Below, one piece after another: positions 29,661-53,975 of a stretch of 64,000 nt of DNA. This stretch comes from an uncultured Chloroflexia bacterium. Lineage in GTDB: Bacteria; Chloroflexota; Anaerolineae; Anaerolineales; UBA4823. The DNA is taken from positions 450,435 to 514,434 of the forward strand of contig CAVSBZ010000007.1 in the NCBI GenBank assembly GCA_963726315.1, written 5' to 3'. Every line of letters begins with the position of its first letter. The stretch's first letter is position 1. A model generated the notes under the pieces. That model saw only the letters and a list, made by a program, of their open reading frames with translations. It was not told where the DNA came from and did no database searches. A program made the position numbers and the translations under genes.

Positions 29661-29670
29661 GGATGAGCGA

Positions 29671-34338: not shown

Positions 34339-35412
34339 TCATAATTTTCGCATCAGCTCGACCCAATCGATTGCGTGTTGCGCCAGGGTGCGTTGGGTAT
34401 ATAAATAACGGGTCGCGTTTTGGGCAATATTCAAGCGCAGGGTGGGGTCATTGATCAAGCAATCCAGCGCTTCCTCCCAGGCTTCGGGGGTGTTCGCTGC
34501 CAGCCAGCCATTGTGCTTGTGCTGCACAGTGGATGAATAAGCAGGAGATTGACTGAATATTCCGGCTGCACCGATGGAGGCGTAGTCCAGGAATTTGATA
34601 TCCGACTTGCAGTTGTTGAAGGGGGTATTTTCCAGTGGAGAGATGGCGATATCCCAATGAATTTGCCCGGTAAACCAGAGCATGAACAGCGGGTATTCGT
34701 TTTCCTCAGGTCTGGGATAAAAGTAGCGAACAGGCAGTCCTTCCAACTGTTCTTTAGTTGCTTGATTATTCACCACACCTACCACCTGAATTTCGATCCG
34801 ACCGGGGTTGCGTTGGTGTATTGATTTGAGCGCTGGCAAAACCAGCTTGAAGTCTTCATCATGGGTGAAAGTGCCCATGTAACCGATCACAATCCGCTTA
34901 TGGTCCAACCTGAGATTTTTATCGCCGGGAAAGCGTGGGATCATCAAGCGCTCATCCAGCTGGTTTGGCAGGACTTGGATATTTGAGTTGAATTCCAACA
35001 GTCGCTGGCGCAGTGCCGGAGTGGTGACCAGCACCGCATCTGCCTGGCGCAGCAAAAAAATGATCACCGGTAGAATTTCGCTGATAGGTCGGGAGTGCTC
35101 ATAAAACGCCAGGTCGAAGTAATCATCGTCGATGCAATAAACGATCCGGCTGCCCCGGAGGTGAATCCTGTTGACCAGCTCTTCTGCCAACGGTAAGGCG
35201 ATATCAAATCTCCACAGGCGATCGATGAGAACCAGATCAGCTGGCTCGTTATTGTAGTCCAACCCAAACGTGGTATCGAGATGAGCCTGCACCTGAGGAT
35301 GGGACAACGGGCGGATTAAGCGCAAGAAAGAGCTGGAATATGGTCGGTAATCCGGTCCATATTCATAAATCACATGAATGCGCCGCTTGTTGGGTTGAAT
35401 GGGATCAGTCAT
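34339..35412 (-). CDS. GT-B-fold glycosyltransferase-like protein, paralog of 32996..34291
   Basis: VIGYMGTFTHDEDFKLVLPAL...ISPLENTPFNNCKSDIKFLDYASIGAAGIFS...HNGWLA. Confidence 0.5.
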   Translation of the reverse strand: MTDPIQPNKRRIHVIYEYGPDYRPYSSSFLRLIRPLSHPQVQAHLDTTFGLDYNNEPADLVLIDRLWRFDIALPLAEELVNRIHLRGSRIVYCIDDDYFDLAFYEHSRPISEILPVIIFLLRQADAVLVTTPALRQRLLEFNSNIQVLPNQLDERLMIPRFPGDKNLRLDHKRIVIGYMGTFTHDEDFKLVLPALKSIHQRNPGRIEIQVVGVVNNQATKEQLEGLPVRYFYPRPEENEYPLFMLWFTGQIHWDIAISPLENTPFNNCKSDIKFLDYASIGAAGIFSQSPAYSSTVQHKHNGWLAANTPEAWEEALDCLINDPTLRLNIAQNATRYLYTQRTLAQHAIDWVELMRKL

Positions 35413-36914
35413 TTATCCCCCCGGAAAAGCACTTTAAGTATATTGAAAGCTGGTGCTTCCGCATATAAGCGGGCAGCAGCAGAAACGGCATTCTTTTGAA
35501 GCATCAGACGGAGCGCATCGTCTTCGATTAACCGCTGGAGTGCTCTAAAACTGGCTTCCTGGTCATGAGTATCTACCACCAGGCAGTTCTGCTCATTTTG
35601 GGCATAATCCTGCGTGCCACCATTCGCCGGGGCGATCACCGCCAATCCGGTGGCCATGGCTTCCACGGCAGTCAGCCCGAATGCCTGGAAATCTGAAAAA
35701 TCCACAAAGATATCGGCTTCATTGAACAAATTTACTACCTGGGTTGAGCGCAGCTGCCCGGCGAGCTGCCAAACGAAGTCTTGCTCGAGGGAGGCAAAGC
35801 CTGGGTCTGTGGAATCACAGCCGAACAACCTGATTTGCACCCTGGAGGGGTACATTTCGCTGGCTCGCCGCAGGATCGCCATGGTCAGTTTTGGGTTCCG
35901 CCGAGAAGTAGCCGGACGGATCATGGCAGTGATCCTTAAAGGACGGTCTGGCCAGGAAGGGTCGGTGCGCGGGTGTGGTCGGAATAGGTCTGTATCGATG
36001 TGCCCGCCAACGATGGCGCTTTGAATGTGGTGATGGAGCTGGATTTGTTCGGAAATCCACGCAGTGGTCACCATACGCAGCAGGTTTTGGGTCAGGGTGT
36101 AAGAGGCGGTGGCTTTCTGGAATTCGTGCGAATCCGGCGGGTAGAAATACGGTTCATAATCCTGGATGTAATATCCAAGCTTCAAATCAGGTAATTTTTC
36201 CGCTGCTGGAGCAATCCAGGCGACGGTTGGGTTGGAAGTGGCGATGACGGCATCGAAATTGGCAGCCAAGCGGGGAATATCCTCAACGTCGGCAAAAACC
36301 ACCGGCAGCTTGAGATCGGGATAATTCTTTTCGAACCAGGAGCGGTGAACATTCAGGTTCATGATCTGGGCATCGACGCCCATGCGCTGCATTGCCCTGG
36401 CTACCAGGATAATTGAATTGGCACCACCGCCCAATACGCGGATCGGTGAAACGAACAACACCCGCCGGTTTCGAAAGAGGGCGCGACCCTGTTCAACCAG
36501 CCTCTGGCGCTCAATGAAATTTTGATTATGGCTGGTGAGACCCGTTTGGACCAGCTCAGCGTGGTACCCGGAAGCCGGTGTGAATTCGGGAAATAGTGCC
36601 TGTCCTTTTTGCTCGAGAGGTGGGGTAAGGTGAATATCCTCCACCTTTAGAAATTGGCCCCGCCCACGCGTCACCAGTTTCCTGCGTATTGCCTGGTAGG
36701 CGCCCCGAGTTTGCCAGCTGATGAATTGGTATAAGCGTTTGAGAAAAAATACCATCCCATCCTGGCGAATGATAGTGAATCCATAACGAATATGGCGGAT
36801 GGCTGACTCCAACCGGCTGACTGGAGCAATATTAGTGTCAACAGGTCGCCTGGTCTCATTCATGACGAGGGAAAAATCCAATCGCTGAAGATATTCCTCC
36901 AGGAAATGACCCAA
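35409..36914 (-). CDS. GT-B (GT4-like) glycosyltransferase; shortest member of a three-gene paralog series
   Basis: RVLFVSPIRVLGGGANSIILVARAMQRMGVDAQIMNL...GYYIQDYEPYFY...DTDLFRP...AFGLTAVEAMATGLAVIAP is colinear with the C-terminal ~370 aa of the next two genes. Start uncertain (TTG 36914 or ATG 36863). Confidence 0.7.
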   Translation of the reverse strand: MGHFLEEYLQRLDFSLVMNETRRPVDTNIAPVSRLESAIRHIRYGFTIIRQDGMVFFLKRLYQFISWQTRGAYQAIRRKLVTRGRGQFLKVEDIHLTPPLEQKGQALFPEFTPASGYHAELVQTGLTSHNQNFIERQRLVEQGRALFRNRRVLFVSPIRVLGGGANSIILVARAMQRMGVDAQIMNLNVHRSWFEKNYPDLKLPVVFADVEDIPRLAANFDAVIATSNPTVAWIAPAAEKLPDLKLGYYIQDYEPYFYPPDSHEFQKATASYTLTQNLLRMVTTAWISEQIQLHHHIQSAIVGGHIDTDLFRPHPRTDPSWPDRPLRITAMIRPATSRRNPKLTMAILRRASEMYPSRVQIRLFGCDSTDPGFASLEQDFVWQLAGQLRSTQVVNLFNEADIFVDFSDFQAFGLTAVEAMATGLAVIAPANGGTQDYAQNEQNCLVVDTHDQEASFRALQRLIEDDALRLMLQKNAVSAAARLYAEAPAFNILKVLFRGDK

Positions 36915-39068
36915 TCATGGCTCAACCGGAAAGAGTGCCTTGAGGATATTATAGGCGGGCAGCTCAGGATAAAACTGAACACCGGTCGAGAGGGCATTCT
37001 TCTGCAGCTTCTGCCTGAGCGCATCATCTTCGACCAGGCGCTGCAGGGCTCTGAAACAGGCATCTTGATCCTGGGTATCTACGACCAGGCAGTTCTCTTC
37101 ATGCCTGGCAAAGGCATCCGACCCGCCTTTGGAAGGGACAATAGTGGCTAAGCCGCAGCACATTGATTCTATGGCAGTCAGCCCGAAGCCCTGAAATATG
37201 GAATAGTCCACAAATATATCTGATTGGTTGAGCAGGTTAACGATTTGAGCTGGGCGCAGCTCTCCGGCAAGCTGCCAGGGGAAATTCTTAGGCAGTGGGG
37301 CAAAACCTGGGTCATAGGGTTCACAGCCGAAGAGCAAGAATTCCAATTTTGAGCCATACAGTTTACTGGCTTGTTGGAGAATCTGCATCGTCATTCTTGG
37401 GCTACGACGCTCCGAGCTGGGACGGATCATGGCGGCAATCCGCAAAGGTTGTTCGGACGGTGAAGAATCTGGGAGTGGAATTGGACGAAATAAATCGGTA
37501 TCGATGTGACCACCAACCAGCTGGCTGGAGATGGCGTGCTGTTGCTCAATCTGGTCACTGATCCATTGGTTGGTCACACAGCGCACCTGGTTTGGAATCA
37601 GGTTATAAGAAGCTGCGGCAACACGGTAACCTTCAGAATCAGGCCGGTAGAAGTACGGCTCGTAATCCTGGATATAGTACCCAACTCGCAAATCGGATCG
37701 CTTAACCTGAGCTGGAACAATCCAGGAAACGGTAATGTTGGATGTGGCAACCAGCGCATCATAACCGTCAGCCATCTCCGGAATATCCTTAATTTCTCCG
37801 AACAAAACCGGAACGTCTACAGCGGGGTAGGATTTCATGAAAGATGGGCGGTTGATCAACAAGTTCATAATTTGAGCGTCCACTCCCATTTTCCTCATTG
37901 CCTGAACTGCGAGAAAAACTGAATTTGATCCACCTCCAGCACCCTTTACCGGCAAGATGAACAGCACTCGCCGGTTGTTGAAGTGTTCCCGTCCTGAACG
38001 GATCAGATTTTCTCGTTCGGCGATATAACGGTTGTGCCAGTAAATGCCCTCCTGAATACGGTCGTGGTGAGGATAAGTATTTCCCTCGCTAAAACTGCTA
38101 TGCTCTTCTTCCTTAGCCAGTGGCGTGACAGGCAGCTCCAGGTTTTCGAGCGAATTATTCGGGTCAGTATGGTCAGGTTGAACGATATTGACATATGCGT
38201 TATCTGCAAGTGCGGGTTGCCAGCTTGTCTGTGATAGATGTAGCCATTCATCTTCTTTAATAACTCCAAGCTGGTCAATCATCTGGTGTCGCACAAGCAG
38301 GAAGTGGTCATCCAGTTTATTCAGTGGTGGGTAAATCCGCCTGGAATACAGAGAGACCAATTCACCGGTTGGGTTGGGAAGGCTGCTTTCCGGGAGAGTC
38401 AGTCTTGCCGGATTGATTGTGGATAGAGTATTCGATATGGCAAGGTCAATCGACAGGTTGGTTAACGGACCCACCAGCCCAATCTTGGGGTCACTTTCCA
38501 TACAAGCCAGCATGCCATCCAACCAACCTGGGGTGACCTGTGTATTGCTGTTAAGCAGGACGGCGAATTCAGTCACGGATTTCTGTAAACACTGGTTTAA
38601 GGCTTGTGGATAACCCAACTTGTTATCATGCCGGATAATGGGGATAGAATGGCTAAAACCTGCCAGGTAGTGCTGAGTTTCCTCGTCGCTACCGTCATCA
38701 ACCAGGGTGATTTGAAAAGGAGGGGGAGTGCATTTTTGGACGGATTCGACACATTCCTTGAACTCTGAAGTCGAATTATGAATATAAATAAAGATATCGA
38801 CCGGTGATCGGTGGGGTGACGCCGGGGGGTTAATGCGAATATCTTCAAGCGTGATGACTTTAGCTCCCTTGGGCATCGTCCCCTTGAAACGCAGGATATA
38901 CCCGAAGCGGATCAAATCCCAATATACCTTCCTTACTATTAGAAGGACGAAAGTGAATATCCCCTCATTACGGATAATAGAGAGCGCATGGCGGATCGGA
39001 CTTCTCGTGTTTTCTGCCTGTTTGCCAGATGGAATGGGGCTTTGGCGGTGCTGTTTTGATGCGGTCAT
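36915..39068 (-). CDS. Bimodular GT2 + GT-B (GT4-like) glycosyltransferase
   Basis: GT2 part: VDIFIYIHNSTSEFKECVESV...ITLVDDGSDEET...LLNSNTQVTPGWLD. C-terminal GT-B part: RVLFILPVKGAGGGSNSVFLAVQAMRKMGVDAQIMNL...GYYIQDYEPYFY...GFGLTAIESMCCGLATIVP. Confidence 0.75.
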   Translation of the reverse strand: MTASKQHRQSPIPSGKQAENTRSPIRHALSIIRNEGIFTFVLLIVRKVYWDLIRFGYILRFKGTMPKGAKVITLEDIRINPPASPHRSPVDIFIYIHNSTSEFKECVESVQKCTPPPFQITLVDDGSDEETQHYLAGFSHSIPIIRHDNKLGYPQALNQCLQKSVTEFAVLLNSNTQVTPGWLDGMLACMESDPKIGLVGPLTNLSIDLAISNTLSTINPARLTLPESSLPNPTGELVSLYSRRIYPPLNKLDDHFLLVRHQMIDQLGVIKEDEWLHLSQTSWQPALADNAYVNIVQPDHTDPNNSLENLELPVTPLAKEEEHSSFSEGNTYPHHDRIQEGIYWHNRYIAERENLIRSGREHFNNRRVLFILPVKGAGGGSNSVFLAVQAMRKMGVDAQIMNLLINRPSFMKSYPAVDVPVLFGEIKDIPEMADGYDALVATSNITVSWIVPAQVKRSDLRVGYYIQDYEPYFYRPDSEGYRVAAASYNLIPNQVRCVTNQWISDQIEQQHAISSQLVGGHIDTDLFRPIPLPDSSPSEQPLRIAAMIRPSSERRSPRMTMQILQQASKLYGSKLEFLLFGCEPYDPGFAPLPKNFPWQLAGELRPAQIVNLLNQSDIFVDYSIFQGFGLTAIESMCCGLATIVPSKGGSDAFARHEENCLVVDTQDQDACFRALQRLVEDDALRQKLQKNALSTGVQFYPELPAYNILKALFPVEP

Positions 39069-39096: not shown

Positions 39097-42060
39097 TTAC
39101 AAGGGGAATAAAGTGTTCAGCATATTCAAAGCGACCTGCTCTGGAAAATAAGCACAAATATCGTGAATGGCATTGTGCCGCAGTTGATCGCGAAGCTTTT
39201 CATCATCAATGAGGCGCTGTAAGGCAGCCCACACGTTATCAAAAGCTGACATGTCGACAACCAAACTGTTTTGTTCATTTATGGCGTAAGTGGTTGCACC
39301 ACCATTTTGGGGAACGATCACCGCTGAACCGCAAGCCATAGCCTCCATGGCAGTCAGACCCATCGCCTGATGGGACGAGTAATCAACAAAAATATCGGTC
39401 TGACTGAGCAGATTAGCTACCTGGGAAGGAGAGAGAATCCCATATAATTTCCACGGGAAGCCTTGCGCCAACTGCTGAAAGTCAAGATTATCGTGAGTGG
39501 TTCCGAACTGGTTAATCTCGACCTCACCTCTATATTTTTGGGACAATTTTCGTAGCAGCGTCATCGTTTTTTTGGGTTCCCGATATGAAGATTCCGGCCG
39601 GATCATAGCGGTGATCGTCAATGGTCCATCAGGCCAAACCGGGCGATGATGCGGGCGTGGGCGAAAGAGATCAATATCCACGCTGGCACCAATCACTCTA
39701 CATTCGCGACTGGTGGAACGAATGATCTGCTGTCGTGTCCAATCTGTTTTGGTGAATAGGACCATATTCTCAATCAAGGTATAAGAATTGAGGGCGCTTT
39801 GATAGCGCGAGTCAGCATCTTTATACATTAATGGTTCGAACCCCTGAATATAATAACCAAGCGCCGGATGAGGCGTCCTTGATTGGAGGGGTTTAAGCCA
39901 ATCAACCGTTGGGTTAAACGTGGCGATAACAGCATCATAATTTTGAGCTGCGAATTCCAGATCTGCTTCACTACCAAAAATTGTATAAGGAAGGAGGTCT
40001 GGATAGGACTTAATGAAACCCTGCTTGTGTGAGGCTGGGTGAAAATAGGATACTTTTACTCCCATCTCTTGCATGGCGAAGCTCTCAGTGCGGATGACAT
40101 TGACACCCCCGCCAGGATTATAGATGGCATCGAACACAAAGAGAACCTTCTTGCCTGACAACTGCTTACCTTCATGAACGCATTTTTGCCTGTCATGGGC
40201 CACCTGTGCTCTGGCGCGGATCCCTTCCAAGACTGGATCTTGCAGGCAAAAATGCACGCTCTGCGAAAGCATCTTTTCGCCGTGTTTCTTGCGCAGGATT
40301 TTTTGGGCGCGTTCAGAGAGCGCCAAACGTTGGTCAGTCGAATAGCTCTTGGATTGGGCATGGTAAATATAAGCATCGTCGGCAAGCGCCAGCTTCCAAC
40401 CCAGCTTGCGGGCGCGCAGCATGAGGTCATCCTCTTCACCATACCCCTGCCTGAACTGCTCCTCGTCGAATAGCCCGGCCTCATCCAATAATTTCCGCCT
40501 GATCAGCAAGCAGAAGCCGTTCAATAAGGGCATATCCACATACAATCTGGCAGACCTGGAGGCGACCAGCTGTGCCATGCCGGCGGGGGATAACCCCCCC
40601 GGTAATGGGTTGGAAGCCCAATCGCCGTTCTCCTCAATTTTAGGAACTGACTGCCAGGAGGCGGTGTTAGAAAGCGGACCAACTGCCCCGATCTTGTCGT
40701 CGGTTTGGATACACGCCATCAGTCTGTCCAACCAATCTGGGGTCAGGATGGTGTCGCTATTTAACAATACCAGAAACTCCGCGCTGGATGCACGCATCCC
40801 CCGGTTGGCAGCGCTGGGATAACCCGTTGGCTGGTCCGATCTGAGCAACAGGGAGTTGTGCAAAGCGGTAAATTCGCCCAGGTATTGGGCGGTTTGCTCA
40901 CCAGAGCCATCATCGACCAAAATAAGCTTGTACGGCTGAGTGGTGTGCTCAATGAGGGAATCCAGGCAATTGCGGGTATCTTCCAGTGCATTATGCACAC
41001 AGATAATAATATCCACATTGGTTGTATGTGGTTCGAGCCTTGGTCGGTCGACCATACCGGCGATCTCACAGACTTGACTGGCTGGCGATGAATTGGAATG
41101 CCTTAGCCTATATTGATGCCAAAGAATACTGGTTCTAAGAGCAAGCCTTCCATAAAGTTTCTGCGAAGAGAATTGAAAAAAGCCGATGAAGCCTTCACGG
41201 CGGAACACCTGATACCCCCGAAATACATTGCGCATGGCTGATTCCCGCCGGCTTCCCAGGGGAATGATCCGCTCCCTGAAGTGTTGTACGTGGGTAATAA
41301 GTCGCCAGCTGGTGCTGTTCCTGATCGCATCCAGCTCCGCCTGGAGACGCTTCGGCTTCCAATATTGAAGCTCCATCTCTTTCCTGGCAAGCTCATTTTT
41401 ATATTCCACGCTGAGCGCGCGCCTCAGTGCGGCTTCCTGTGAAACCTGCCAGATCTTCCGTTCGTAGAGCATTATCTGGTCCGCTAATTGTAGCTTGGCT
41501 TTCAGGAAGCGCATCGCCCATGGAGCGACGAAAGAAGCGTCGAAGTCAAGGTCATGGATGAAGCCAAGCCGGTTAAAGATGGCTGCCCAATACTCGGGTG
41601 GTTGGGTGGTTCCATGTGACGAATGATTAGAATCGATTGGCAGGCAGGAAAAAAGTACGTCTTCAGTATGCAGACACAGGTTTTCCAATGCGCTGACCGC
41701 ATCTTCAGGAGACAGGTGCTCGACGACATCGATACAGATGATCAAATCGAAATGCGTTTGGGGTAAAGGCTCGAGGATCGACCCTCCCTGGCAGTAAGGT
41801 TGACTTTCAGTCAACACCCTGCCTATGGAGGTTTCGGAGCTATCGATTCCCCACGCATCCACGCCACGGTTGCGCAGCGCTCTAATCAGGTAACCGCTTC
41901 CACATCCGGTATCCAGGACTGTGGCGGGCTGCAGGTCAAGCACGATGCGTTCAGCCAGACTTTCGAATGACCCCGTCGTGGAATCATCGGGAAAGGCTTG
42001 ATCGCCCCAGCGCATGGTGTGGTAGATCTGGTTAAAATTATCCTGGTGGTTAGGTGTCAT
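39097..42060 (-). CDS. Multidomain SAM-methyltransferase / coiled coil / GT2 / GT-B (GT4-like) enzyme, 987 aa
   Basis: MTase: VLDTGCGSGYLIRAL...IICIDVVEHL. Helical heptad-like stretch: KAKLQLADQIMLYERKIWQVSQEAALRRALSVEYKNELARKEMELQYWKPKRLQAELDAIRNSTSWRL. GT2: VDIIICVHNALEDT..LILVDDGSGEQT..LLNSDTILTPDWLD. GT-B: KVLFVFDAIYNPGGGVNV...GYYIQGFEPLMY...AMGLTAMEAMACGSAVIVP. Confidence 0.75.
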   Translation of the reverse strand: MTPNHQDNFNQIYHTMRWGDQAFPDDSTTGSFESLAERIVLDLQPATVLDTGCGSGYLIRALRNRGVDAWGIDSSETSIGRVLTESQPYCQGGSILEPLPQTHFDLIICIDVVEHLSPEDAVSALENLCLHTEDVLFSCLPIDSNHSSHGTTQPPEYWAAIFNRLGFIHDLDFDASFVAPWAMRFLKAKLQLADQIMLYERKIWQVSQEAALRRALSVEYKNELARKEMELQYWKPKRLQAELDAIRNSTSWRLITHVQHFRERIIPLGSRRESAMRNVFRGYQVFRREGFIGFFQFSSQKLYGRLALRTSILWHQYRLRHSNSSPASQVCEIAGMVDRPRLEPHTTNVDIIICVHNALEDTRNCLDSLIEHTTQPYKLILVDDGSGEQTAQYLGEFTALHNSLLLRSDQPTGYPSAANRGMRASSAEFLVLLNSDTILTPDWLDRLMACIQTDDKIGAVGPLSNTASWQSVPKIEENGDWASNPLPGGLSPAGMAQLVASRSARLYVDMPLLNGFCLLIRRKLLDEAGLFDEEQFRQGYGEEDDLMLRARKLGWKLALADDAYIYHAQSKSYSTDQRLALSERAQKILRKKHGEKMLSQSVHFCLQDPVLEGIRARAQVAHDRQKCVHEGKQLSGKKVLFVFDAIYNPGGGVNVIRTESFAMQEMGVKVSYFHPASHKQGFIKSYPDLLPYTIFGSEADLEFAAQNYDAVIATFNPTVDWLKPLQSRTPHPALGYYIQGFEPLMYKDADSRYQSALNSYTLIENMVLFTKTDWTRQQIIRSTSRECRVIGASVDIDLFRPRPHHRPVWPDGPLTITAMIRPESSYREPKKTMTLLRKLSQKYRGEVEINQFGTTHDNLDFQQLAQGFPWKLYGILSPSQVANLLSQTDIFVDYSSHQAMGLTAMEAMACGSAVIVPQNGGATTYAINEQNSLVVDMSAFDNVWAALQRLIDDEKLRDQLRHNAIHDICAYFPEQVALNMLNTLFPL

Positions 42061-42113
42061 GCTTGCTTATCGCCCCATTGGGTCGCAGAAATCCTGCATG
42101 TATCCAGCATTTT

Positions 42114-43364
42114 TTATAACAGGTGCCATTCACCACTCATGGTCATAACCCCATAACGATCATGAACGTTATGTCCATGGTTGTTAATTCGGAAGGTGTA
42201 GTAGTGATCGTGGTAGTCAAGGATGATATTTCCGAGGCGATTAACCAGCGCAATGGATAATTGATACATACCTTCCATCAGGGGGAGAGAGGGAATGGTA
42301 TAAACGATCCCACCAATCCCCGGCATTACTTTTATATCCAAACCATCGAAAGCCGTGTTCGGTCCGGTGATATGAACTCCATCCTGCCGGTGGATGGCAA
42401 TCCCTACCTCCAGTGAATTGACCTGTTCGTGGGCAACATATTCAATCTGCACCTGCATACATTCGCCGGTATGGAATATTTGCTGCTCCCGGTCCTGTTT
42501 ATTTAATATCCTGACTTGCCTGATTTCGATGGGTTTATATTCTTTTTCGTCAGAATTATCACCTGCCTGGCTCTGGGCGATAAGCTGCCGGTTTTCTTCT
42601 TCCGAGACGAGACCAAGGTAACGATCGACCACTGTTTTTGCATTATCCATCGATACAATTTGGCCGCGGTGAAGCCAGGCGGCTCGCTGGCACATCCCCT
42701 CGATCACGCTCATCGAGTGGGAAACGAGCAGGATGGTCGCCCCTTGAGATTTGATTGCCAGGATGCGGTCATAACTCTTATGCTGAAAAGCTTCATCGCC
42801 TACCGATAAAATCTCATCCACAATCAGGATGTCGGGCTGTGAATCGGTTGCCACAGCGAAGCCCAGCCGGGCAGTCATGCCGGAAGAATAGGTGCGCAGT
42901 GGTGCGTCAATGAAATCACCCAGCTCTGAAAACTCAACGATGCGCGGGAATTTTTTATGCATTTCTTCCTGGCTGAATCCGAGCATGGCACCATTGAGAT
43001 ATATATTCTCGCGGCCGGTCAGCTCAGGGTGAAAGCCCGCACCGACTTCAAGCAGGGGTGCCACGCGCCCTCTCACAATCACCCGCCCTGCTGTTGGTCG
43101 GATCACTTTTGCCACCAGCTTTAGCAGCGTGCTTTTCCCGGCGCCATTATGACCGATCAGACCGAATACTTCGCCCCGGTTTACACTCAGGTTTACCTGG
43201 TTCAAAGCATTAAAAGTGCGCTGTTTGACCTTCCCCTCAATCAAGCGGATAAAGTACTCCTTGAATGTGCCTATCTGCTCCTGGGGGACGCGGTACTTTA
43301 CCGAGACGTTATTGAGCTCGATAATGGTTTGATCGGATGTCAATGCGGCAGGAGTTTCAGTCAT
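42114..43364 (-). CDS. wzt: Polysaccharide ABC exporter ATP-binding protein (Wzt-like) with C-terminal extension
   Basis: GLIGHNGAGKSTLLKLV Walker A, YSSGMTARLGFA, LIVDEILSVGD, then about 180 aa beta-rich C-terminal domain. Start set at ATG 43364 (MTETPAAL); 43391 or 43421 are possible. Confidence 0.85.
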   Translation of the reverse strand: MTETPAALTSDQTIIELNNVSVKYRVPQEQIGTFKEYFIRLIEGKVKQRTFNALNQVNLSVNRGEVFGLIGHNGAGKSTLLKLVAKVIRPTAGRVIVRGRVAPLLEVGAGFHPELTGRENIYLNGAMLGFSQEEMHKKFPRIVEFSELGDFIDAPLRTYSSGMTARLGFAVATDSQPDILIVDEILSVGDEAFQHKSYDRILAIKSQGATILLVSHSMSVIEGMCQRAAWLHRGQIVSMDNAKTVVDRYLGLVSEEENRQLIAQSQAGDNSDEKEYKPIEIRQVRILNKQDREQQIFHTGECMQVQIEYVAHEQVNSLEVGIAIHRQDGVHITGPNTAFDGLDIKVMPGIGGIVYTIPSLPLMEGMYQLSIALVNRLGNIILDYHDHYYTFRINNHGHNVHDRYGVMTMSGEWHLL

Positions 43365-43368
43365 TTTC

Positions 43369-44208
43369 CTATATCCGGTAGGCAAATTCATCCGATTTAT
43401 TGGTAAAAACCAGCCAACCAAGGGTCAGGAAGAATAAAGAGATACCCAGCGGTATCAGGAACTCGGTCATGGTAGGTAATCTGCCAAAATAGATGGGGAT
43501 GCGGAACAGGGTGACCATATGATACATGGGATTGAGTACGGTGAGGTAGAACCGGTAGGCCTCTGGCAAAATCGTGACGGGATACATGACCGGGGTGAGG
43601 AACATCCACGCCATCATAAGTATTTGGTACATCTCGGCAATATCCGGGAAATAGACCGCCAGGGTGGATATTAATAACCCGATTCCCAGGGCAAACCCTG
43701 CCAGGATCACTACCGATATGGGGGTAAATAAAATCGACCAGTGCAGTTTAAGCCCGGTGATAAACATGACCCCAATTAGAGGCACCATTGAGAGAGTAAT
43801 GTTTACCAGACCAGTGCCAATGGCAGCGATGGCAAATGAGGTCCTGGGCATGTAGATGCGGTTGAGCAAACCACCCCCCCAGACCAGGTTAACCATCGAG
43901 GCAGTAGTGGTCTGGCTGAAAAATGTCCAGGCTAACAAACCGCTTAGTACATAGGCTGGATAGGATGGCAGGTCACCAGCTCGAAAAAACTGGGAGAAAG
44001 CAATCGTCCACACCAACATCATGCCGAGGGGGTTGAGCATCGTCCAGGCAACACCCAGGAATGACCTCTTGTAGCGGGTCAGGATGTCTCTACGGATCAG
44101 CTGCAGGATCAGGTAGCGATAATTAAATATCTCGCGCAGCTCTTCAAGCACGACAGAGCCCCGGCGAGTGCTATCATATACCACAGAAAGACCAGGTTGA
44201 GACTTCAT
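43369..44208 (-). CDS. wzm: ABC-2 type polysaccharide exporter permease (Wzm-like)
   Basis: YRYLILQLIRRDILTRYKRSFLGVAWTMLNPL N-terminal ABC-2 motif; 6 TM pattern; 279 aa. Confidence 0.85.
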   Translation of the reverse strand: MKSQPGLSVVYDSTRRGSVVLEELREIFNYRYLILQLIRRDILTRYKRSFLGVAWTMLNPLGMMLVWTIAFSQFFRAGDLPSYPAYVLSGLLAWTFFSQTTTASMVNLVWGGGLLNRIYMPRTSFAIAAIGTGLVNITLSMVPLIGVMFITGLKLHWSILFTPISVVILAGFALGIGLLISTLAVYFPDIAEMYQILMMAWMFLTPVMYPVTILPEAYRFYLTVLNPMYHMVTLFRIPIYFGRLPTMTEFLIPLGISLFFLTLGWLVFTNKSDEFAYRI

Positions 44209-44293: not shown

Positions 44294-45094
44294 TTATTTG
44301 GTGGCGAGAAATCCGCCGACGACCTTGGTCATCACTAATTTGCCATCTTTTGCCAGGCGTTGCTCGGCAACGGTTTTAATCGCCTGCATGACTTGCTCGA
44401 AGCCCCCTGAATCTTCAAACAAGGTCTTCCAAAGCCGGCGATCTTCAGATAACGATGCCCGGGTGTAGGCAAGGAATGGGTCAACTTCTTCGAATGTCAA
44501 CGGGTTTTCGAAGATGTGCAGCTCAACCGTAGAGAACAGGTTTTGAATGTTCTTATAGATCAGGCTGGAATAGCGTGAGCTGCCCGGCATGGGTGGAATG
44601 GGTTTGTGTGTTGCCTCAAAGATGAGGTCATAAAATAGTTTTTTATTTTCCGGCATGGGACCGGTGGTAAATAAGCGTCCACCTAGGTTGAGCACCCTGT
44701 GCATCTCAGCGATTGTGTAGGGTATGTCTTCGGAATAATAGATTGCAAAACAAGAGGTCACCAGGTCGAACTCGTCATTGTTAATCGGAAAGCGCTGGTT
44801 GAAATCGAGGTCGATGAACCGGATGCGGTTCCCAATCTTGGCATTTTCCTGGCGTGCTTTTTCGAGCAGCTCTGGGTTTACGTCACCACCCGTAATATCT
44901 GCCTCGCCATCCAACGCTTTATAAAAAAGGAAGCATTGTTTACCTGCCCCACAGCCGATATCCAGGATTTTTGAGCCCTTTTGTGGATTGATGATATGGA
45001 GCATCCATTCATCGATATCACGGCTACCATATTTCTTATGGATATCGATGCGGGCGAGCAGGTCATTGGTTGTTTCTTGATATTCGATTTTCAT
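44294..45094 (-). CDS. Class I SAM-dependent methyltransferase
   Basis: ILDIGCGAGKQ motif I and FDLVTSCFAIYY motif; 266 aa. Confidence 0.8.
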   Translation of the reverse strand: MKIEYQETTNDLLARIDIHKKYGSRDIDEWMLHIINPQKGSKILDIGCGAGKQCFLFYKALDGEADITGGDVNPELLEKARQENAKIGNRIRFIDLDFNQRFPINNDEFDLVTSCFAIYYSEDIPYTIAEMHRVLNLGGRLFTTGPMPENKKLFYDLIFEATHKPIPPMPGSSRYSSLIYKNIQNLFSTVELHIFENPLTFEEVDPFLAYTRASLSEDRRLWKTLFEDSGGFEQVMQAIKTVAEQRLAKDGKLVMTKVVGGFLATK

Positions 45095-45155: not shown

Positions 45156-47174
45156 TTACTGCTTGCATGCACTGATATCGATCAGGAGACGGAAATCCTT
45201 TTTATCATCCTGCTCGCGCTGGTCGAGGATATCGACGCATGGCTGTTGGAAATATTCCTGTTGAGACCGGGTAAGGCCATCCCACCAGGTTTGGTCTATA
45301 TACACGTAATCATACCCTGCGGAGGCGACGTGGCTGGGATTGGGATCGGCGATCAGGGCTTGCCATTCAGGTAAGGGCTCATAAATTCCCGAGCTGGCGC
45401 GCGAAATATGCCCGAAGATGGCAACCGAACGCTCAGGTACACGATCTAGCACCTGGGTACCATAGGGCAGTTTATTCCAGTAATCCACCGCGTAACGGGC
45501 ATCCAGACCATCGATGTAATAAGCTAATTGGGGGCTGTTAATCGAATACAGCTGTACTCTGAAGATGACCACTCCGGCAAGGACGCATACCAGGAATCCA
45601 ACGGATAGTCCTACCCTGGCAGCACTACTTATATGAGGAAGCGCTCTCCACAAGATGGGGAAGGCTATCACCAGCGCGACCCACAAGCCTGTGGCTGACA
45701 TGCGCGTGATCGACCGGTCGACTTCATATTGAAAAAATAGTGGGAATATCAGGCTGAGAGCTACACTGATTGCTAAACCGATGGCGAATAGATTTCCATA
45801 TTTGAGGTCTTTCTTGAACCCGAAAAAGATGACCGGAATGATCAGTAAAGCCGGACCGAGCTCAGCCAACAATGCAGTCAGCTGACCTGGGTTTACAATT
45901 GAAAGCACCCCCAGGTGTGCAGAAAGTAATCCAGGCGGCATGCGTATGGAAAACCCGCGTGCGTTATAACTCTGGGCGGCTGCTCCTGTTATTGTGCTAA
46001 TTAAATTCCGGGCAGTCTCCGTGATGAACCCACCCTGCACCAATGCGATGACGCCGCTCGTCAGAAGAATGATCCCCCATTGAAGGGCGATAACCTTGGA
46101 TACGGACGCAGGTAAGCGCTTTCGGTAAAGAAAAGCAATGCCAATCGCTAAAAGGATTCCCACCCAGATAACCGCAAAGAGATGCTCTGCGCTCAATGCA
46201 AGTGTGGAGAAAATCAGGCTCCAAATGATCAGGCTGGCAATCGAGAAACGCCCACGTGGGAGCAGCAGGAGCAGCAGGAAAACCGTCATGAACGGAAGCG
46301 CACCGGTGCTGCCCAGGTTGAAGAAAACGGGCACGAAGATCCCGTTATGAAAAGCGAATGGAAATGCGACCGGTCCGCCGCCTTCGATCACCCACGAGCT
46401 GTGTAAGGCTTTAGTTAATGTTGCGGCTGTATCCAGTCCCGTCCCCACCAGATTGACCCTTTGGCTGACCCAGCTTAGCCACGGGGCAGGCAGTATTAAT
46501 AACAACCAGCGAGCCCCGCCAGCAAAGGTGAATAAAAAAGTACCCAACCAGGCTGCCAAACGGCTGCCGGTGACTTTACGCACCCAGATCCACCCCAGAA
46601 CGAGGGTGAAGCCGATTGCCAGGGCGCGACTGAAATCCCAGGCGCTCCATGGGAAAAAGTTTCCCAGGCGCACCAGGCTGGCAGCGTATACCTGGAGGGC
46701 ATAATGATAGGCAAAGTAAAATGCGGGATTAAGGTAAAAATGAGGTGGGATATCGCCAGCCGCCATGATGGAGATGAGCGGAAGGTGCTGGTATTCATCG
46801 AATATGGATTCACCCCGCAGGATTAGAGTGAATAATATAGTAATCGCTGCCAACCCCACCAGTAGAGGAATGGCGCTTAGCTCACTTTTGTTGATTCCTG
46901 CAGGTTTTTTTGATCTCCAGGCAAATAGAAGTCCAGCTGCCAGGATCAGAATCGATGCAGCCCAAAAAGCAGCAGTTAGCGGCAAGACGTGCGCCAGAAG
47001 GTTGCTTAAACCAATAAAAATCACAAAACCGGCTGCTAATCCAGTCACAATGCGCTCGGTGCGGCGTAAACGGAAAGCGTACCTGACAAGCAGGATGCCA
47101 CCCGAGGCCCACCCAGCGGAGAGCAGGAAGTAGAGAGCTAAATCAACCAGATTGTTGGTACGAAGCCAATACAT
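45156..47174 (-). CDS. Very large polytopic membrane protein (about 15 TM), GT-C-like candidate, function unknown
   Basis: 672 aa. Loop IFDEYQHLPLISIMAAGDIPPHFYLNPAFYFAYHYAL (acidic loop plus aromatic-rich motif) and a soluble C-terminal ~110 aa. No family confidently recognised. Confidence 0.45.
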   Translation of the reverse strand: MYWLRTNNLVDLALYFLLSAGWASGGILLVRYAFRLRRTERIVTGLAAGFVIFIGLSNLLAHVLPLTAAFWAASILILAAGLLFAWRSKKPAGINKSELSAIPLLVGLAAITILFTLILRGESIFDEYQHLPLISIMAAGDIPPHFYLNPAFYFAYHYALQVYAASLVRLGNFFPWSAWDFSRALAIGFTLVLGWIWVRKVTGSRLAAWLGTFLFTFAGGARWLLLILPAPWLSWVSQRVNLVGTGLDTAATLTKALHSSWVIEGGGPVAFPFAFHNGIFVPVFFNLGSTGALPFMTVFLLLLLLPRGRFSIASLIIWSLIFSTLALSAEHLFAVIWVGILLAIGIAFLYRKRLPASVSKVIALQWGIILLTSGVIALVQGGFITETARNLISTITGAAAQSYNARGFSIRMPPGLLSAHLGVLSIVNPGQLTALLAELGPALLIIPVIFFGFKKDLKYGNLFAIGLAISVALSLIFPLFFQYEVDRSITRMSATGLWVALVIAFPILWRALPHISSAARVGLSVGFLVCVLAGVVIFRVQLYSINSPQLAYYIDGLDARYAVDYWNKLPYGTQVLDRVPERSVAIFGHISRASSGIYEPLPEWQALIADPNPSHVASAGYDYVYIDQTWWDGLTRSQQEYFQQPCVDILDQREQDDKKDFRLLIDISACKQ

Positions 47175-47188
47175 AATAAAAAATCAGC

Positions 47189-48949
47189 TCATTTGCACGG
47201 TTCGGGGCGTGGGGTGTATAAAACCACGCCGACAGAATCCAATGTTGTTGCTGCCTGGTAATAACACAATACCGGCTCGGAGACGCGCTGCACCCAGGCA
47301 TCGTTCTCCTCGCCAAAGCTGTGATTTCTTCCTTGATACTGGATAACCAACGGTTCCGAAACGATCATGTCGAAGCGCTGATTGCTGATATCCGTATCAA
47401 ATGCATCCACATAGGAGCGGTTATCAGACATCGCCATTTCCATCAGGAAGACAAGCTCATCATCCGGTACCAGGGGTACATTCTTGACCTCATCGAAGGT
47501 CAACAGGTGGCGCTGGCTGATAAACAGTACTTCACCACCCTTTTTCGCAACCTGCTGGGTGGCAGTATTGATCGTCTTCAGAGCAGCCTGGGCAGCCGCA
47601 AAATCGCGCCGCGGGATTTGACCTCCCGTGCTCAAGGTGAAATACATGGGGATGATCAGCGCACCGGCGAGGAAAATATTTTCGATGGTGCTCAAAAGTT
47701 GGCTGGGCTTTGCAGGGGTAAGCTCCTCATTATTTTCAGCCAATTTAGCTGGGTGATCGGGCTCGAAGCGATCAAAGTAAATATAACTTCCGACGACGAA
47801 CAGCAGGGCTAGATATGCGTCGAGGTTGTGCAGGTTACTTCCGCCGCCAATCTTGAGGCTGACGATCACGCCGCCGATAAAGAGCACACCCAGGATGGCA
47901 GTTAAACCTGACAGTCGGATGAGGTGAAATTCCCGCCAGCGGCGGATGAGACGGACAAGAATGAGACCGATGATGGGCAGAGACACCAGTACGGCGCTCA
48001 ATAGAATTCCCATTGGGTACGTCTGGTTGGGGAAGAGGCGGTACCACAGCAGGTCGGATGAGAAGCTGGATCCGAACCAGGGAGGTGGATTACCTGACCA
48101 CTGCTGGTATGCAGATTGGCTAACGAAACCGATTCCCGTCCCTGCGAGCACCCAAACAGCCGGCGGGATGAGGTATTTGATCAGGGATTTATCCTCCACC
48201 CTGGCTTCCAACATGTATAGCGCAGAAGCCAACAATCCTGGCACTGGCAACCAGTTGATGCGGCTGATGCCTGCCCAGACGGAGGCGATCAGTACCAGGA
48301 TAAGGTTACGCCAGAAGCGCTGCCGGTTAAAGCCCCAGAGGATTAAAATCACCATAAACTGCAGGTGGTAATAGACTGGTCCCTGGAACAGGAAGATGAA
48401 CCCCCACATAACCATGCTTAAAGTGATAACCAGTGGTTTTCTTCGGGCTGGTAAAGCCAACCGGCGAACCAGCAGGAAACTGGTAAGCGCGGTGGTGACG
48501 ACCCACAAAACTACCTGCCAGAACCGGCTGAACCACAGCGAAGAACCAGGCACCAGGAAGGGTAGCGCTTGCAGCAGGTAGCGGGTAGGGTGAAGCACAG
48601 AGGGTGGCACGGACAGACCATACACCTGCCTGGATAACCACAGGGAGGCGTAATAATATCGGCTGCCTTCCGACCAGCCCAATGAGAATGGATAAGAAGA
48701 GACATCCGGGATAAAACTGGCGAGCTTATAGATTGAGGCATAACCCAGTGTGGTGACCAGGAATGCTGCACCCCAACCTTGGTTTGGCCATGCCTGCCGA
48801 AAAAGGAACGCTCCACCGACAGATAAGAGACAAAAAATCCCCAAGCGTACCGGAATGCTCGCGGTCAGTGTGACTGCAGGTGAAAGTACCAGCACCGGGA
48901 AAATTATGAATGAAATAATATAAAGAATGGCGAATATTTTCCGCTGCAT
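47189..48949 (-). CDS. Large polytopic membrane protein with soluble C-terminal domain, GT-C-like candidate
   Basis: 586 aa. Loop PFSLGWSEGSRYYYASLW, more than 10 hydrophobic segments, C-terminal ~170 aa soluble domain. Confidence 0.45.
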   Translation of the reverse strand: MQRKIFAILYIISFIIFPVLVLSPAVTLTASIPVRLGIFCLLSVGGAFLFRQAWPNQGWGAAFLVTTLGYASIYKLASFIPDVSSYPFSLGWSEGSRYYYASLWLSRQVYGLSVPPSVLHPTRYLLQALPFLVPGSSLWFSRFWQVVLWVVTTALTSFLLVRRLALPARRKPLVITLSMVMWGFIFLFQGPVYYHLQFMVILILWGFNRQRFWRNLILVLIASVWAGISRINWLPVPGLLASALYMLEARVEDKSLIKYLIPPAVWVLAGTGIGFVSQSAYQQWSGNPPPWFGSSFSSDLLWYRLFPNQTYPMGILLSAVLVSLPIIGLILVRLIRRWREFHLIRLSGLTAILGVLFIGGVIVSLKIGGGSNLHNLDAYLALLFVVGSYIYFDRFEPDHPAKLAENNEELTPAKPSQLLSTIENIFLAGALIIPMYFTLSTGGQIPRRDFAAAQAALKTINTATQQVAKKGGEVLFISQRHLLTFDEVKNVPLVPDDELVFLMEMAMSDNRSYVDAFDTDISNQRFDMIVSEPLVIQYQGRNHSFGEENDAWVQRVSEPVLCYYQAATTLDSVGVVLYTPRPEPCK

Positions 48950-49890: not shown

Positions 49891-50859
49891 TCAGGTAACC
49901 TCCCCCCCAAGGTGTTTCAGGTCAGCGTCCACCATCATCTCGGCTAATCCATCGAAGTCGATCTTTGGCGACCAACCGAGAGACTGGCGCACCCTGGTGG
50001 AGTCGGCAACCAGCAGGTCCACCTCTGCCGGTCGGATAAAGCGGGGATCCTGGACGACGTAATCATGATAATCAAGATCGAGGTAACAAAAAACCTTTTC
50101 ACAAAATTCACGCACGGTGTGTGTTTCCCCGGTGCCCACGACATAATCCACCGGCTGATCATTTTGGAGCATGCGCCACATGGCATCCACATAATCACCG
50201 GCAAAACCCCAATCACGGCGCGCTTCCAGGTTGCCGAGGTGCAGGTCTTTTGCCAATCCCAGCTTGATCCGTACCGCGCCATAGGTGATCTTGCGGGTGA
50301 CGAATTCCGTCCCGCGGCGGGGGCTTTCGTGGTTGAATAGAATTCCGGAAACCGCGAACAGGTTATACGATTCACGGTAATTGACCGTGATCCAATGCCC
50401 GTAGACCTTAGCAACACCGTAGGGGCTACGGGGGTAAAACGGAGTGGTCTCTCGTTGGGGCACTTCGTGCACTTTGCCAAACATCTCGCTCGAGGAAGCC
50501 TGGTAATACCGCGTTTTTGGGCTGAGCAGGCGGATGGCCTCCAGCATACGTGTAACGCCGAGGGCGGTGACTTCACCTGTGAGCACAGGCTGGTTCCACG
50601 AGGTGGGCACAAAGGATTGCGCGGCGAGGTTATATACTTCATCAGGTTTAAACTGCTCGATAAGGTCCATCAAAGAGCTCTGGTCGTGGAGATCTCCCTG
50701 GATGATATCTATTTGGTCCTGGATATGCTGGATGCGCTCGAAGGTTACCACGCTGGAACGACGCATCATTCCAATCACGCGATAACCTTTAGACAATAAT
50801 AGCTCAGCCAGATAAGATCCATCCTGACCGGTAACTCCGGTGATGATTGCTGTCGGCAC
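49891..50859 (-). CDS. gmd: GDP-mannose 4,6-dehydratase
   Basis: [67 protein letters not shown] start preceded by AGGAG 8 nt upstream. Confidence 0.9.
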
Positions 50860-50877: not shown

Positions 50878-50904
50878 TCAATATTCAATGACTGAATTAT
50901 AAAC
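50878..50904 (-). promoter_or_regulatory. Candidate promoter/operator upstream of gmd: TATAAT (50901..50896) plus palindrome ATTCA-N5-TGAAT
   Basis: Minus strand reads GTTTATAATTCAGTCATTGAATATTGA. 20 nt (50883..50902) are identical to 32282..32301. The stop codon (50899..50897) of the preceding gene lies inside the TATAAT. Confidence 0.45.
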
Positions 50905-52543: not shown

Positions 52544-53975
52544 GAGGGGTAGGGTTTGGAGAGATAGCCCGATTTTTGGTCATGCTGTGGTAGATGAAGA
52601 CGGTCACCCATAGAACCACCATGGATTGCAGCGGTACCAGGAAGCGAGGATTATCACCATGGTCAATCAGGGTTTGCAGGATGGAGGCGATCCAGATATT
52701 ACCCAGCAACATCCACAGAAATGCGCCCACGGGAGGGTGAATATGGGGGATATGCAGTGGGGATGGTTTTCGGCGTAAGGCAAATAAACACTCGATAAGG
52801 GCAAATGCGATCGAAGAGAAGATAAATACTAGGTTGCACAGGAAGAGCAGTCCCCGTTCAAGCAGGACGAGGAACCTGACACCCCCCGCGAGCCAGTGAT
52901 AGCGCACTGCATCTGCGGACCAATAGACGGGGACACGCCAGAACATCCACCAACCCGAGATCGCATTTTTAATATATTGCATAGGATGATGCAGGATAAG
53001 GTCAACTGAAATGCGCGCCAGGACTCTCGAGAGGGCATAAAAACTATACCCCGAAACTTTGCTCATCTCGGGGATGGCATCCCAGATGGCATTGGTCTGG
53101 GTGCCAAACTCGGCAATTTGGGCATCGCGATATTTGATATAGGTATCCCGCAAGGAAGCATATTCGTCGGGTACATATTCGAAGTAATTCCCAGTGTGTT
53201 GGATCAGGTTGTATCCCGTCATGGTGGTGATGGCCCATTCACCAAAGTTCTTATGGATAAAAGTAACCCAACCCCCCAAGAGCAGGAATACTGGGAGAAG
53301 AAATGCAAGTCCAATTCCCAGGTGCGGAACCCTGCGGACAGGCCGGTGATCATCGGCGGTATCTTCCTCAGCGGGATTTCTAACCTGTAGAGAAGTGAGC
53401 TTGGGCTCGATCCACAGGAACAGCAGCAGGTAGAACGGCAGGTAGATGAATAACGGTCTTACCAGGAGCGTTGCGGTAGAAGATAATCCCAACACAAACC
53501 CCAGCCATGGTCGGCGATATTGGGGGTATAAAAGCCAAACCAACACACCAGCCATGGTCAAGGTCATCAGGAAGGTGGTCAGTGATTCGGTAAGCAGGTT
53601 GGATTCAAAAAAGAGCTGTCCCAGGTTGAGAGTATGGGCGAGGGCGAGTAGTCCCCCCAACCAGGGTTTGTCCGTCAGCTTCCAACCCATAAAAAATATG
53701 AGCAAGGTGGTAATGGATCCCAACAGGAGCTGAGCCAGCCAAACGTGTTGATCACTGCCTACCAGGGCTAAAAAGACCGGATAACCGGGTGTGCGCGTGC
53801 CATCATAACCGGCAAATCCGTGTAACACCGTTTCTGCCAGTCGTCGGTAGCTGGGAGTGTCACCATAGGAAGCTGGTTGGTAGAACAGGATGGTGAGCAG
53901 CCGGAGCAGGAATGCTGCAGTAGAAACGATGATCAACCAGGCGATGGGTGACGAAGCGTATCTTCTAAGGTTCAT
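52512..53975 (-). CDS. GT-C fold membrane glycosyltransferase (GT39/ArnT-like)
   Basis: First loop YGDTPSYRRLAETVLHGFAGYDGTRTPGYPVFLAL is typical of PMT_2/ArnT-like proteins. Start set at ATG 53975 (MNLRRYASS), overlapping the upstream gene by 11 nt. Confidence 0.6.
   Translation of the reverse strand: MNLRRYASSPIAWLIIVSTAAFLLRLLTILFYQPASYGDTPSYRRLAETVLHGFAGYDGTRTPGYPVFLALVGSDQHVWLAQLLLGSITTLLIFFMGWKLTDKPWLGGLLALAHTLNLGQLFFESNLLTESLTTFLMTLTMAGVLVWLLYPQYRRPWLGFVLGLSSTATLLVRPLFIYLPFYLLLFLWIEPKLTSLQVRNPAEEDTADDHRPVRRVPHLGIGLAFLLPVFLLLGGWVTFIHKNFGEWAITTMTGYNLIQHTGNYFEYVPDEYASLRDTYIKYRDAQIAEFGTQTNAIWDAIPEMSKVSGYSFYALSRVLARISVDLILHHPMQYIKNAISGWWMFWRVPVYWSADAVRYHWLAGGVRFLVLLERGLLFLCNLVFIFSSIAFALIECLFALRRKPSPLHIPHIHPPVGAFLWMLLGNIWIASILQTLIDHGDNPRFLVPLQSMVVLWVTVFIYHSMTKNRAISPNPTPLDLSQSLQRP

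Follow-up and report, generated by a model that had tools for sequence, protein, structure and literature searches.

A wzm-wzt-linked methyltransferase, helical stalk and glycosyltransferase protein of Chloroflexota as a candidate polymerase and capping enzyme of a surface glycan

Can one polypeptide polymerise a surface glycan, close the chain with a methyl group and leave it to an ATP-binding cassette (ABC) transporter for export, and does a helical segment between its modules measure the chain? This question is raised by a gene cluster in a stretch of 64,000 nucleotides (nt) from an uncultured Chloroflexia bacterium (contig CAVSBZ010000007.1), the whole of which is referred to here as the window and in which all positions are counted. 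On the minus strand of the window, the permease gene wzm2 (43369-44208) is followed by wzt2 (42114-43364), whose ATG lies four bases past the wzm2 stop, and by an open reading frame (ORF) of 987 amino acids (aa) at 39097-42060 that codes for a methyltransferase, a helical stalk, a glycosyltransferase (GT) of family 2 (GT2) and a GT-B-fold glycosyltransferase; residue numbers refer to the true 987-aa protein including Met1. A first-pass annotation, whose coordinates for these three ORFs agree exactly with the ORF listing and whose motifs VLDTGCGSGYL, NSTSWRL, LILVDDGSG and LLNSDT are all found in the 987-aa translation, had proposed that a capping methyltransferase, a molecular ruler and a polymerase are fused in this protein. 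From this proposal, the fusion of the domains and the functional reading are best supported, whereas a ruler in this particular protein was not borne out.

The reading that we favour, and consider rather probable as a whole, is that this operon of an Anaerolineae-type Chloroflexota bacterium serves the assembly of a surface glycan by the ABC-transporter-dependent (Wzm/Wzt) route, and that the large enzyme polymerises and methyl-caps a glycan and Wzt2 recognises the cap. The GT modules would extend a lipid-linked glycan at the cytoplasmic membrane face, probably together with a partner of 357 aa that belongs to GT family 4 (GT4) and with two additional paralogues in the clade of this bacterium. 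The methyltransferase head would O-methylate the non-reducing terminal sugar, by which extension would stop, and the binding domain of Wzt2 would recognise the capped end for export of the chain by Wzm2 and Wzt2. Capping, termination and cap-dependent export would be expected here by analogy to WbbB, WbdD, ORF6 of Klebsiella pneumoniae O7 and WsaE.

The head of the large protein (residues 1-190, 41491-42060, minus strand), which is the proposed chain-capping module, was claimed to be a class I S-adenosylmethionine (SAM)-dependent methyltransferase, and this was confirmed by Pfam hits, intact motif residues and a confidently predicted fold. The families Methyltransf_23, Methyltransf_25 and Methyltransf_11 match residues 42-130 with E-values of 1e-11 to 9e-10, and in an AlphaFold2 model of the whole protein, built from 71 homologues (mean predicted local distance difference test (pLDDT) score 87.7, predicted template modelling score 0.71), the head is a Rossmann-type fold with a pLDDT of about 90. 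The model consists of five parts, namely the methyltransferase fold at residues 1-190, the stalk helices, further helices, a GT-A fold at residues 346-635, and at residues 636-987 a GT-B fold that is complete, with about 350 aa. It had been asked beforehand whether the SAM-binding residues might be degenerate, but in the alignment of the 71 sequences there is little or no variation in the motif I residues G52-C53-x-x-G56, in D73, which follows strand 2, and in D105. At the level of sequence and fold, the head thus has the intact catalytic residues of a terminating enzyme, the activity itself being predicted.

Also the two glycosyltransferase modules are as the first-pass annotation described them, with agreement of Pfam, the structural model and Foldseek. 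The GT2 module (residues 346-635, 40156-41025, minus strand) is matched by Glycos_transf_2 at residues 351-461 (E 7.6e-20), with Glyco_tranf_2_3 reaching residue 572, and the best solved relative of this GT-A part is the chondroitin polymerase K4CP (E 1.4e-16), which was matched by Foldseek as well. The following GT4-like GT-B module (residues 636-987, 39100-40155, minus strand) is matched by Glycos_transf_1 at residues 872-965 (E 8.7e-14), which corresponds to its C-terminal half, and in Foldseek searches the GT-B part resembles the GT4 enzymes MshA, PglA and PimA (E 1e-12 to 1e-14, template modelling scores of 0.7-0.75 on the target). D383-D384, D436 of the NSDT motif, E542-E543 and D545 of the GT2 module and Q898 and E906 of the GT-B module are invariant or nearly so in the same alignment. 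No NCBIfam model scored above its cut-off for the large protein, and sequence, profile and Foldseek searches against solved structures gave generic GT2, GT4 and methyltransferase relatives and a weak hit to the WbdD methyltransferase, with no match to the WbbB polymerase.

Between the stalk and the GT2 module lies a basic, aromatic-rich helical region (residues 254-345, 41026-41301, minus strand) for which a membrane-proximal or partner-binding role is proposed. It has a net charge of +2 to +4 per 18 residues and is moderately amphipathic, with a hydrophobic moment of up to 0.5, and AlphaFold2 placed helices at about residues 250-265 and 271-321. A transmembrane anchoring of the large protein was considered and rejected because the protein has no hydrophobic segment. 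By analogy to the membrane-proximal part of WbdD, the region may hold the GT modules at the membrane or bind partner proteins, and it is shared with a 717-aa paralogue that is encoded downstream.

Both parts of the exporter were confirmed. Wzm2 is an ABC-2 type permease of 279 aa (Pfam ABC2_membrane, E 2.8e-16) that also resembles the galactan Wzm/RfbD-like NCBIfam model, with an E-value of 5e-19 that is below the cut-off. Wzt2 (416 aa) has a nucleotide-binding domain at residues 1-260 (42585-43364, minus strand; Pfam ABC_tran, E 1.7e-21), by which TagH/TarH are matched as well, and a C-terminal carbohydrate-binding domain at residues 277-399 (42168-42536, minus strand; Pfam Wzt_C, PF14524). 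Whether the C-terminus is a Wzt_C domain had been named in advance as a point on which the proposal depended, and the assignment was confirmed by the PF14524 hit (E 6.2e-22, 78.6 bits at a cut-off of 30.4) and by the alignment of residues 52-395 with the full-length Wzt of Aquifex aeolicus (8DKU/7K2T, E 3e-66), which includes the binding domain. The tail beyond the nucleotide-binding domain is thus present as stated, but it comprises about 160 residues and not about 180. Wzm and Wzt are encoded together and Wzt carries the Wzt_C domain, which are two features of a cap-coupled ABC-dependent glycan pathway.

What does the methyltransferase head do in front of two glycosyltransferases? The best answer comes from relatives of the protein, of which the protein database contains more than 1000. 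The best 120 are nearly all 960-1050 aa long with the same domain set, and those of them with a named source are from Anaerolineales, Anaerolineae or Litorilinea. More than 100 cluster representatives share length and domain order with the 987-aa ORF, and the idea that it is a fusion artefact or a frameshifted gene was therefore rejected. A scan of one genome per species resulted in more than 600 matching stretches, and the survey of the domain order in other genomes that the first-pass annotation had suggested revealed that a core of stalk, GT2 and GT4 modules is widespread across phyla. Full-length matches that include the methyltransferase head were found in Chloroflexota and, within the Polyangia, in one genome. 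The proteins of Nodularia and Scytonematopsis have a much longer stalk, and their Methyltransf_23 head aligns weakly or not at all with the head of the window protein; in an Oscillospiraceae genome the match is divided over two ORFs.

Among the scanned genomes, the closest relative comes from an uncultured member of the Chloroflexota (L001), in which the large protein is 82% identical and the gene order is the same. Between this genome and the window, the Wzm proteins are 97% identical and the Wzt proteins 95-96% in both domains, with 82% for the large enzyme, 73% for its head and 94% for its stalk; judged from these identities, the enzymes diverge faster than the exporter.

The core also occurs behind heads of other kinds, with 39-49% identity over GT2 and GT-B. 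Methyltransf_23 heads are found in Chloroflexota, Polyangia and Nodularia, Methyltransf_24 heads in Variovorax, Bacteroidales, an alphaproteobacterium and Paraburkholderia, and Sulfotransfer_3 heads in one Chromatiaceae genome and one Anaerolineales genome (L038:9026-12241, L016:7097-11986). A further GT2, or a PIG-L and a GT2 domain, form the head in Nitrosomonas, Rubrivivax, Desulfuromonas and Sterolibacterium, and a GT4-like head is found in one Anaerolineaceae genome. In nearly all of these phyla the stalk ends with S-x-S-W-[RK]-x-T-x-P-x-R, a motif that is degenerate in the cyanobacterial versions. We know of no description of sulfate as a chain terminator of an O-polysaccharide.

Most informative is a protein of 1231 aa in Pseudomonas fluorescens PS862 (L034:8537-12232) that is encoded directly after a Wzt of 449 aa and combines a GT99 head with the GT2-GT4 core. 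The head matches the structure of the beta-Kdo (3-deoxy-D-manno-oct-2-ulosonate) transferase of WbbB (5FA0) with an E-value of 3.6e-108, and the core is 40% identical to that of the 987-aa protein. The PS862 protein is the only homologue in which a GT99 head was found, and by these similarities it is a natural hybrid that ties the family to the O12 paradigm, and the N-terminal position of the family can be regarded as a slot for enzymes that modify chain ends. The strongest argument for the methyltransferase head being a terminator is that the same slot holds a GT99 domain of the WbbB type, which is the experimentally established chain terminator of Klebsiella O12.

Does the stalk measure the chain? 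On this point the family and the copy in the window have to be kept apart. For 111 full-length orthologues, each representing a cluster at 90% identity, the length of the stalk was determined from a conserved anchor near the invariant Y199 to the S-x-S-W motif, and the segment spans 50-120 aa among them. In 74 of the 111 it follows the rule 57+7n, with lengths of 57, 64, 71, 78, 85, 92, 99, 106 and 120. When the length of 57 is excluded (n=66), 29 stalks fall into this class where 9.4 are expected, with a binomial P of 6e-9 that ignores the relatedness of the sequences, and the class contains 9 of the 27 distinct stalk lengths (P 0.01). Heptad signals were assessed by register and 3.5-residue periodicity relative to shuffled sequences, which is conservative where a stalk stutters since only a single register is considered; a significant single heptad register was found in 61% of the orthologues, with z-scores of 5-8 for most of the long stalks. 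Several orthologues have tandem repeats of 7 or 14 residues in the stalk, and one with a segment of 120 aa (P0063) was modelled as a 73-aa helix, a break of low confidence and a 36-aa helix. The family stalk is thus of the coiled-coil type, and its length evolves in heptad steps. The region between stalk and GT2 has in the same 111 orthologues a near-constant length, mostly 87-89 or 93 aa and about 60 aa in a subset, and a stalk that changes in heptad steps next to such a constant flank would be difficult to understand if the spacing of head and core, or the register between them, were of no importance.

In the 987-aa protein, the stalk (residues 191-253, 41302-41490, minus strand) ends at N-S-T-S-W-R-L and was modelled with helices at residues 192-232 and 236-247, N248 opening the motif, at pLDDT values of 50-77. 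The segment had been described as about 70 aa long and heptad-like; it is helical and carries the motif, but its length is about 57-63 aa and a heptad periodicity is not significant (z -0.4, p 0.71 in the shuffle test). Between the anchors it comprises 55 aa and is thereby one of the shortest in the family, it is interrupted by Pro236, and the pLDDT falls below 50 at about residues 228-234. These three features, the small length, the proline and the lack of a significant heptad signal, make a ruler role doubtful here, and we regard it as rather improbable that the stalk of this protein measures chain length. The coiled-coil type thus holds for the stalk at the level of the family, whereas in the protein for which the ruler was put forward a coiled coil is itself in doubt, and a ruler even more so.

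For this step alone there is a serious competitor, which we consider quite possible without preferring it: the helical segment may be a dimerisation element or a hinge, and chain length may be set kinetically, by extension versus capping at a fixed 1:1 ratio of the modules. The stalk of 55 aa as compared to up to 120 aa elsewhere, Pro236, the low-confidence break and the missing heptad signal all agree with this. Moreover, sequence conservation across the family is seen in the first approximately 30 residues of the stalk (Y199, E200, W204, R213/R214, L224), as is expected of a specific interface rather than of a spacer, and hardly anything of the variable insert is present in the window protein. 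Methylation by WsaE in vitro was found to be independent of chain length (PMC2943079), which also fits a kinetic control and weighs against a ruler. The whole-heptad variation of the family stalks next to a flanking region of constant length speaks against the hinge.

Returning to the capped glycan, it has to be asked whether the head really acts at the chain end. Of 14 loci with a methyltransferase head, 11 have the large gene after a Wzt that is long enough for the C-terminal domain, and when all head types are taken together, such a Wzt is found in 17 of the 21 loci in which a head is accompanied by a Wzt within 10 kb. Alternatively, the head could decorate sugars in every repeat, and termination and export could then depend on the stand-alone methyltransferase encoded at 44294-45094, or there could be no cap at all; we hold this to be unlikely. 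Several observations nevertheless pull in this direction and weigh against capping by the head. Four head-bearing loci (L006, L032, L038, L049) have a short Wzt without a C-terminal domain, and the head and the Wzt binding domain are therefore not obligatorily coupled. The family profile recognises the methyltransferase domain of WbdD (E 3e-5) and CgnL (7PD7, E 9e-6), and generic class I methyltransferases match it more strongly than these two. The second methyltransferase (266 aa, minus strand; Pfam Methyltransf_25, Methyltransf_31, Methyltransf_11 and Ubie_methyltran) is located directly upstream of wzm2 and is conserved there, a position that it keeps only in L001, L002, L003, L007 and L048, and it could do the capping itself or share terminal and in-chain methylation with the head. 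Against the favoured reading as a whole stands that neither an initiating phosphoglycosyltransferase nor a recognisable ligase was identified in the operon. On the other side, the head occupies the very position that GT99, a terminator of proven type, has in a homologous protein and that the capping methyltransferases have in WsaE and O7 ORF6, and a stalk of variable length between head and GTs makes little sense if the head decorates sugars during polymerisation.

That the large protein is not a polymerase at all, its two GT modules acting once each on a defined oligosaccharide or adaptor while other GTs of the operon polymerise, is a most improbable explanation, for although the operon has four more GT genes and membership in GT2 or GT4 is silent on processivity, the closest solved relative of the GT-A part, K4CP, is a bifunctional polymerase, and the large protein is the sole candidate for repeat-unit synthesis in simpler loci, because the minimal set conserved across phyla consists of wzm, wzt, the large gene and one small GT4 gene, the homologue of the 357-aa protein, directly after it.

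With the polymerising and capping enzyme thus preferred, the neighbouring genes can be considered. wzm2, wzt2, the large gene and the four GT genes lie on one strand with intergenic gaps of -4 to 53 nt, and the order wzm2, wzt2, large gene, 357-aa and 431-aa GT genes is kept across L001-L003. The 357-aa GT4 protein (34339-35412, minus strand; Pfam Glycos_transf_1) is the conserved partner of the large protein, and its homologues (35-49% identity) directly follow the large gene in L004, L005, L006, L008, L010, L012, L014 and L032. The 717-aa protein (36915-39068, minus strand) is a paralogue of residues 255-987 of the large protein (34% identity, E 2e-142 in BLASTP) without head and stalk, and the 501-aa GT4 protein (35409-36914, minus strand; Pfam Glycos_transf_1, E 8e-16) is with its residues 122-497 a paralogue of the GT-B module, sharing 37-48% identity with this part of the large proteins from other loci. 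Both paralogues are present in L001 and L002 and both are absent from L003. The 717-aa paralogue keeps the DDGS motif, but in its GT2 domain NSDT is changed to NSNT and the otherwise invariant GYGEEDD segment is missing. With the Asp of NSDT and this segment lost, the GT2 domain is perhaps inactive, and the paralogue may be a scaffold without catalytic activity.

As to the building blocks, a GDP-mannose 4,6-dehydratase is encoded upstream of the operon. The two genes that flank the operon, at 29671-30633 and 49891-50859, code for such a dehydratase and for a reductase resembling GDP-fucose synthase (NCBIfam E 9e-90, which is below the cut-off). These GDP-sugar enzymes point to a GDP-6-deoxyhexose, such as fucose, D-rhamnose or a similar sugar, and not to dTDP-rhamnose.

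Four polytopic membrane proteins of 533-672 aa are encoded at 45156-47174, 47189-48949, 50897-52543 and 52512-54113, none of which belongs to a Pfam or NCBIfam family, with faint hits to PMT_2 and STT3 for one of them. In related genomes, the first two genes are kept immediately upstream of the methyltransferase, wzm2 and wzt2. These proteins are candidates for a glycan ligase or an extracytoplasmic transferase. It is a tentative and not very probable extension of our reading that monoderm Chloroflexota without lipopolysaccharide (LPS) produce a methyl-capped polysaccharide that is attached to an acceptor by the 45156-47174 or the 47189-48949 protein, which would then be a new kind of ligase, and that heads including sulfotransferases widen the chemistry of caps.

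The operon is embedded in one large glycan island that makes up the window, with all its large ORFs on the minus strand. A second exporter pair, wzm1 (28788-29726) and wzt1 (27462-28745), also has a Wzt_C domain (E 7e-10), and after it, at 25854-27465, two ORFs overlap that have no strong Pfam hits; in one of them Capsule_synth (KpsS/KpsC-like) is weakly matched (E 0.013) and an R-I-H-P motif is present. These two ORFs may be one frameshifted gene of a Kdo-type transferase, and if so, a different cap, an ulosonic acid, would be suggested for the second system. Within 1-24000 the island further encodes NeuB-type synthases (21919-22986, 10099-10974), CMP-type cytidylyltransferases (18642-19532, 11043-12254, 6645-7322), a Capsule_synth-like protein of 551 aa (8325-9980), an MptE-like protein (4046-4861) and GT-C-type membrane proteins of the PMT_2 family (13213-14862, 2414-3943).

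Chloroflexota are abundant in soil, sludge and sediments and their surface glycans are almost unknown, and the operon offers a concrete and testable model for one of these glycans. The established picture of ABC-transporter-dependent glycan assembly is unchanged by it. The most interesting by-products of the analysis are the family-wide heptad quantisation of the stalk and the range of heads that includes sulfotransferases. With stalks that change in whole-heptad steps and one polymerase core that is combined with different capping heads, the family is a natural experiment for the molecular-ruler idea and a possible guide for the glycoengineering of chain length and end-groups. If the exchangeable heads indeed act on chain ends, terminating caps would extend chemically beyond the methyl, phosphate and Kdo groups described so far.

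How new is such a design? The first-pass annotation took the architecture as uncharacterised, and this has to be corrected, since WsaE, WbbB and O7 ORF6 already join terminator, stalk and polymerase in one polypeptide beside wzm and wzt. The design is thus known and the 987-aa protein is a further example of it, with the functional idea now better supported. WbbB of K. pneumoniae O12 and Raoultella terrigena is a single chain in which a terminator, a coiled-coil ruler and a pair of polymerising GT modules are united, and its Wzt has a binding domain (PMC11231755). Like in WbbB, two GT modules of the 987-aa protein are C-terminal to a helical region in the same polypeptide, but the head of WbbB is a GT99 beta-Kdo transferase and not a class I methyltransferase, and of the solved WbbB structures nothing beyond the GT99 domain was matched, the GT2-GT4 core being without a WbbB match. 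WbdD of Escherichia coli O9a, which acts with WbdA (as in K. pneumoniae O3/O5), stands for a methyl-based cap with a coiled coil as ruler, recruitment of the polymerase through a membrane-proximal region, and a cap-specific Wzt domain (PMC11231755). It is related to the 987-aa protein by the weak detection of its methyltransferase domain with the family profile, and it differs in having a kinase, no GT modules, the separate polymerase WbdA and a C-terminal amphipathic anchor, whereas the 987-aa protein has no kinase and has the GTs fused.

Closer in domain order is ORF6 of K. pneumoniae O7, a protein of 1414 aa with a methyltransferase-kinase, an immunoglobulin (Ig)-like module, a coiled coil and two GT2 modules that adds a methyl-phosphate; termination and polymerisation have been shown biochemically, with one further GT acting in trans, and the strategy has been called widespread in bacteria, and orthologues with methyltransferase, coiled coil and GT have been found in several phyla (PMC11231755). 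The order of an N-terminal methyltransferase, a coiled coil or, in the 987-aa protein, a helical stalk, and two C-terminal GT modules in a wzm/wzt cluster is the same in both. However, the 987-aa protein has neither the kinase nor the Ig-like module, and there is no room for a kinase in it, because the last methyltransferase strand ends at about 187, the module itself at about residue 190, and from 191 on the stalk follows, with its helix from 192; no additional domain is seen in the model. The two GT2 modules of ORF6 are also replaced by one GT2 and one GT4-like GT-B module.

The 987-aa protein therefore differs from WbbB, O7 ORF6 and WbdD in their specific features, and it is the description of WsaE that it fits architecturally. 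WsaE of Geobacillus stearothermophilus NRS 2004/3a is a trifunctional enzyme of S-layer glycan synthesis with a methyltransferase and two GT domains that methylates the terminal rhamnose, and it is encoded after wzm and wzt with overlapping codons in a Gram-positive host (PMC2943079); matches to wzm, wzt, WsaE and WsaF have been noted also in an LPS cluster of Xanthomonas (PMC3898925). The likeness, which is one of described architecture, comprises the N-terminal methyltransferase with two GT domains directly after wzm and wzt, a further GT4 gene in the cluster (wsaF), a cap recognition that has been proposed for Wzt, and a monoderm host without LPS (PMC2943079, PMC3898925). A difference is the sugar donor, as WsaE uses dTDP-L-rhamnose and its cluster has rml genes, whereas the operon in the window is flanked by a GDP-mannose 4,6-dehydratase. 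[quoted passage not shown] In detail, the 987-aa protein differs by a methyltransferase without a kinase, a minimal stalk, and a GT2 together with a GT4 module.

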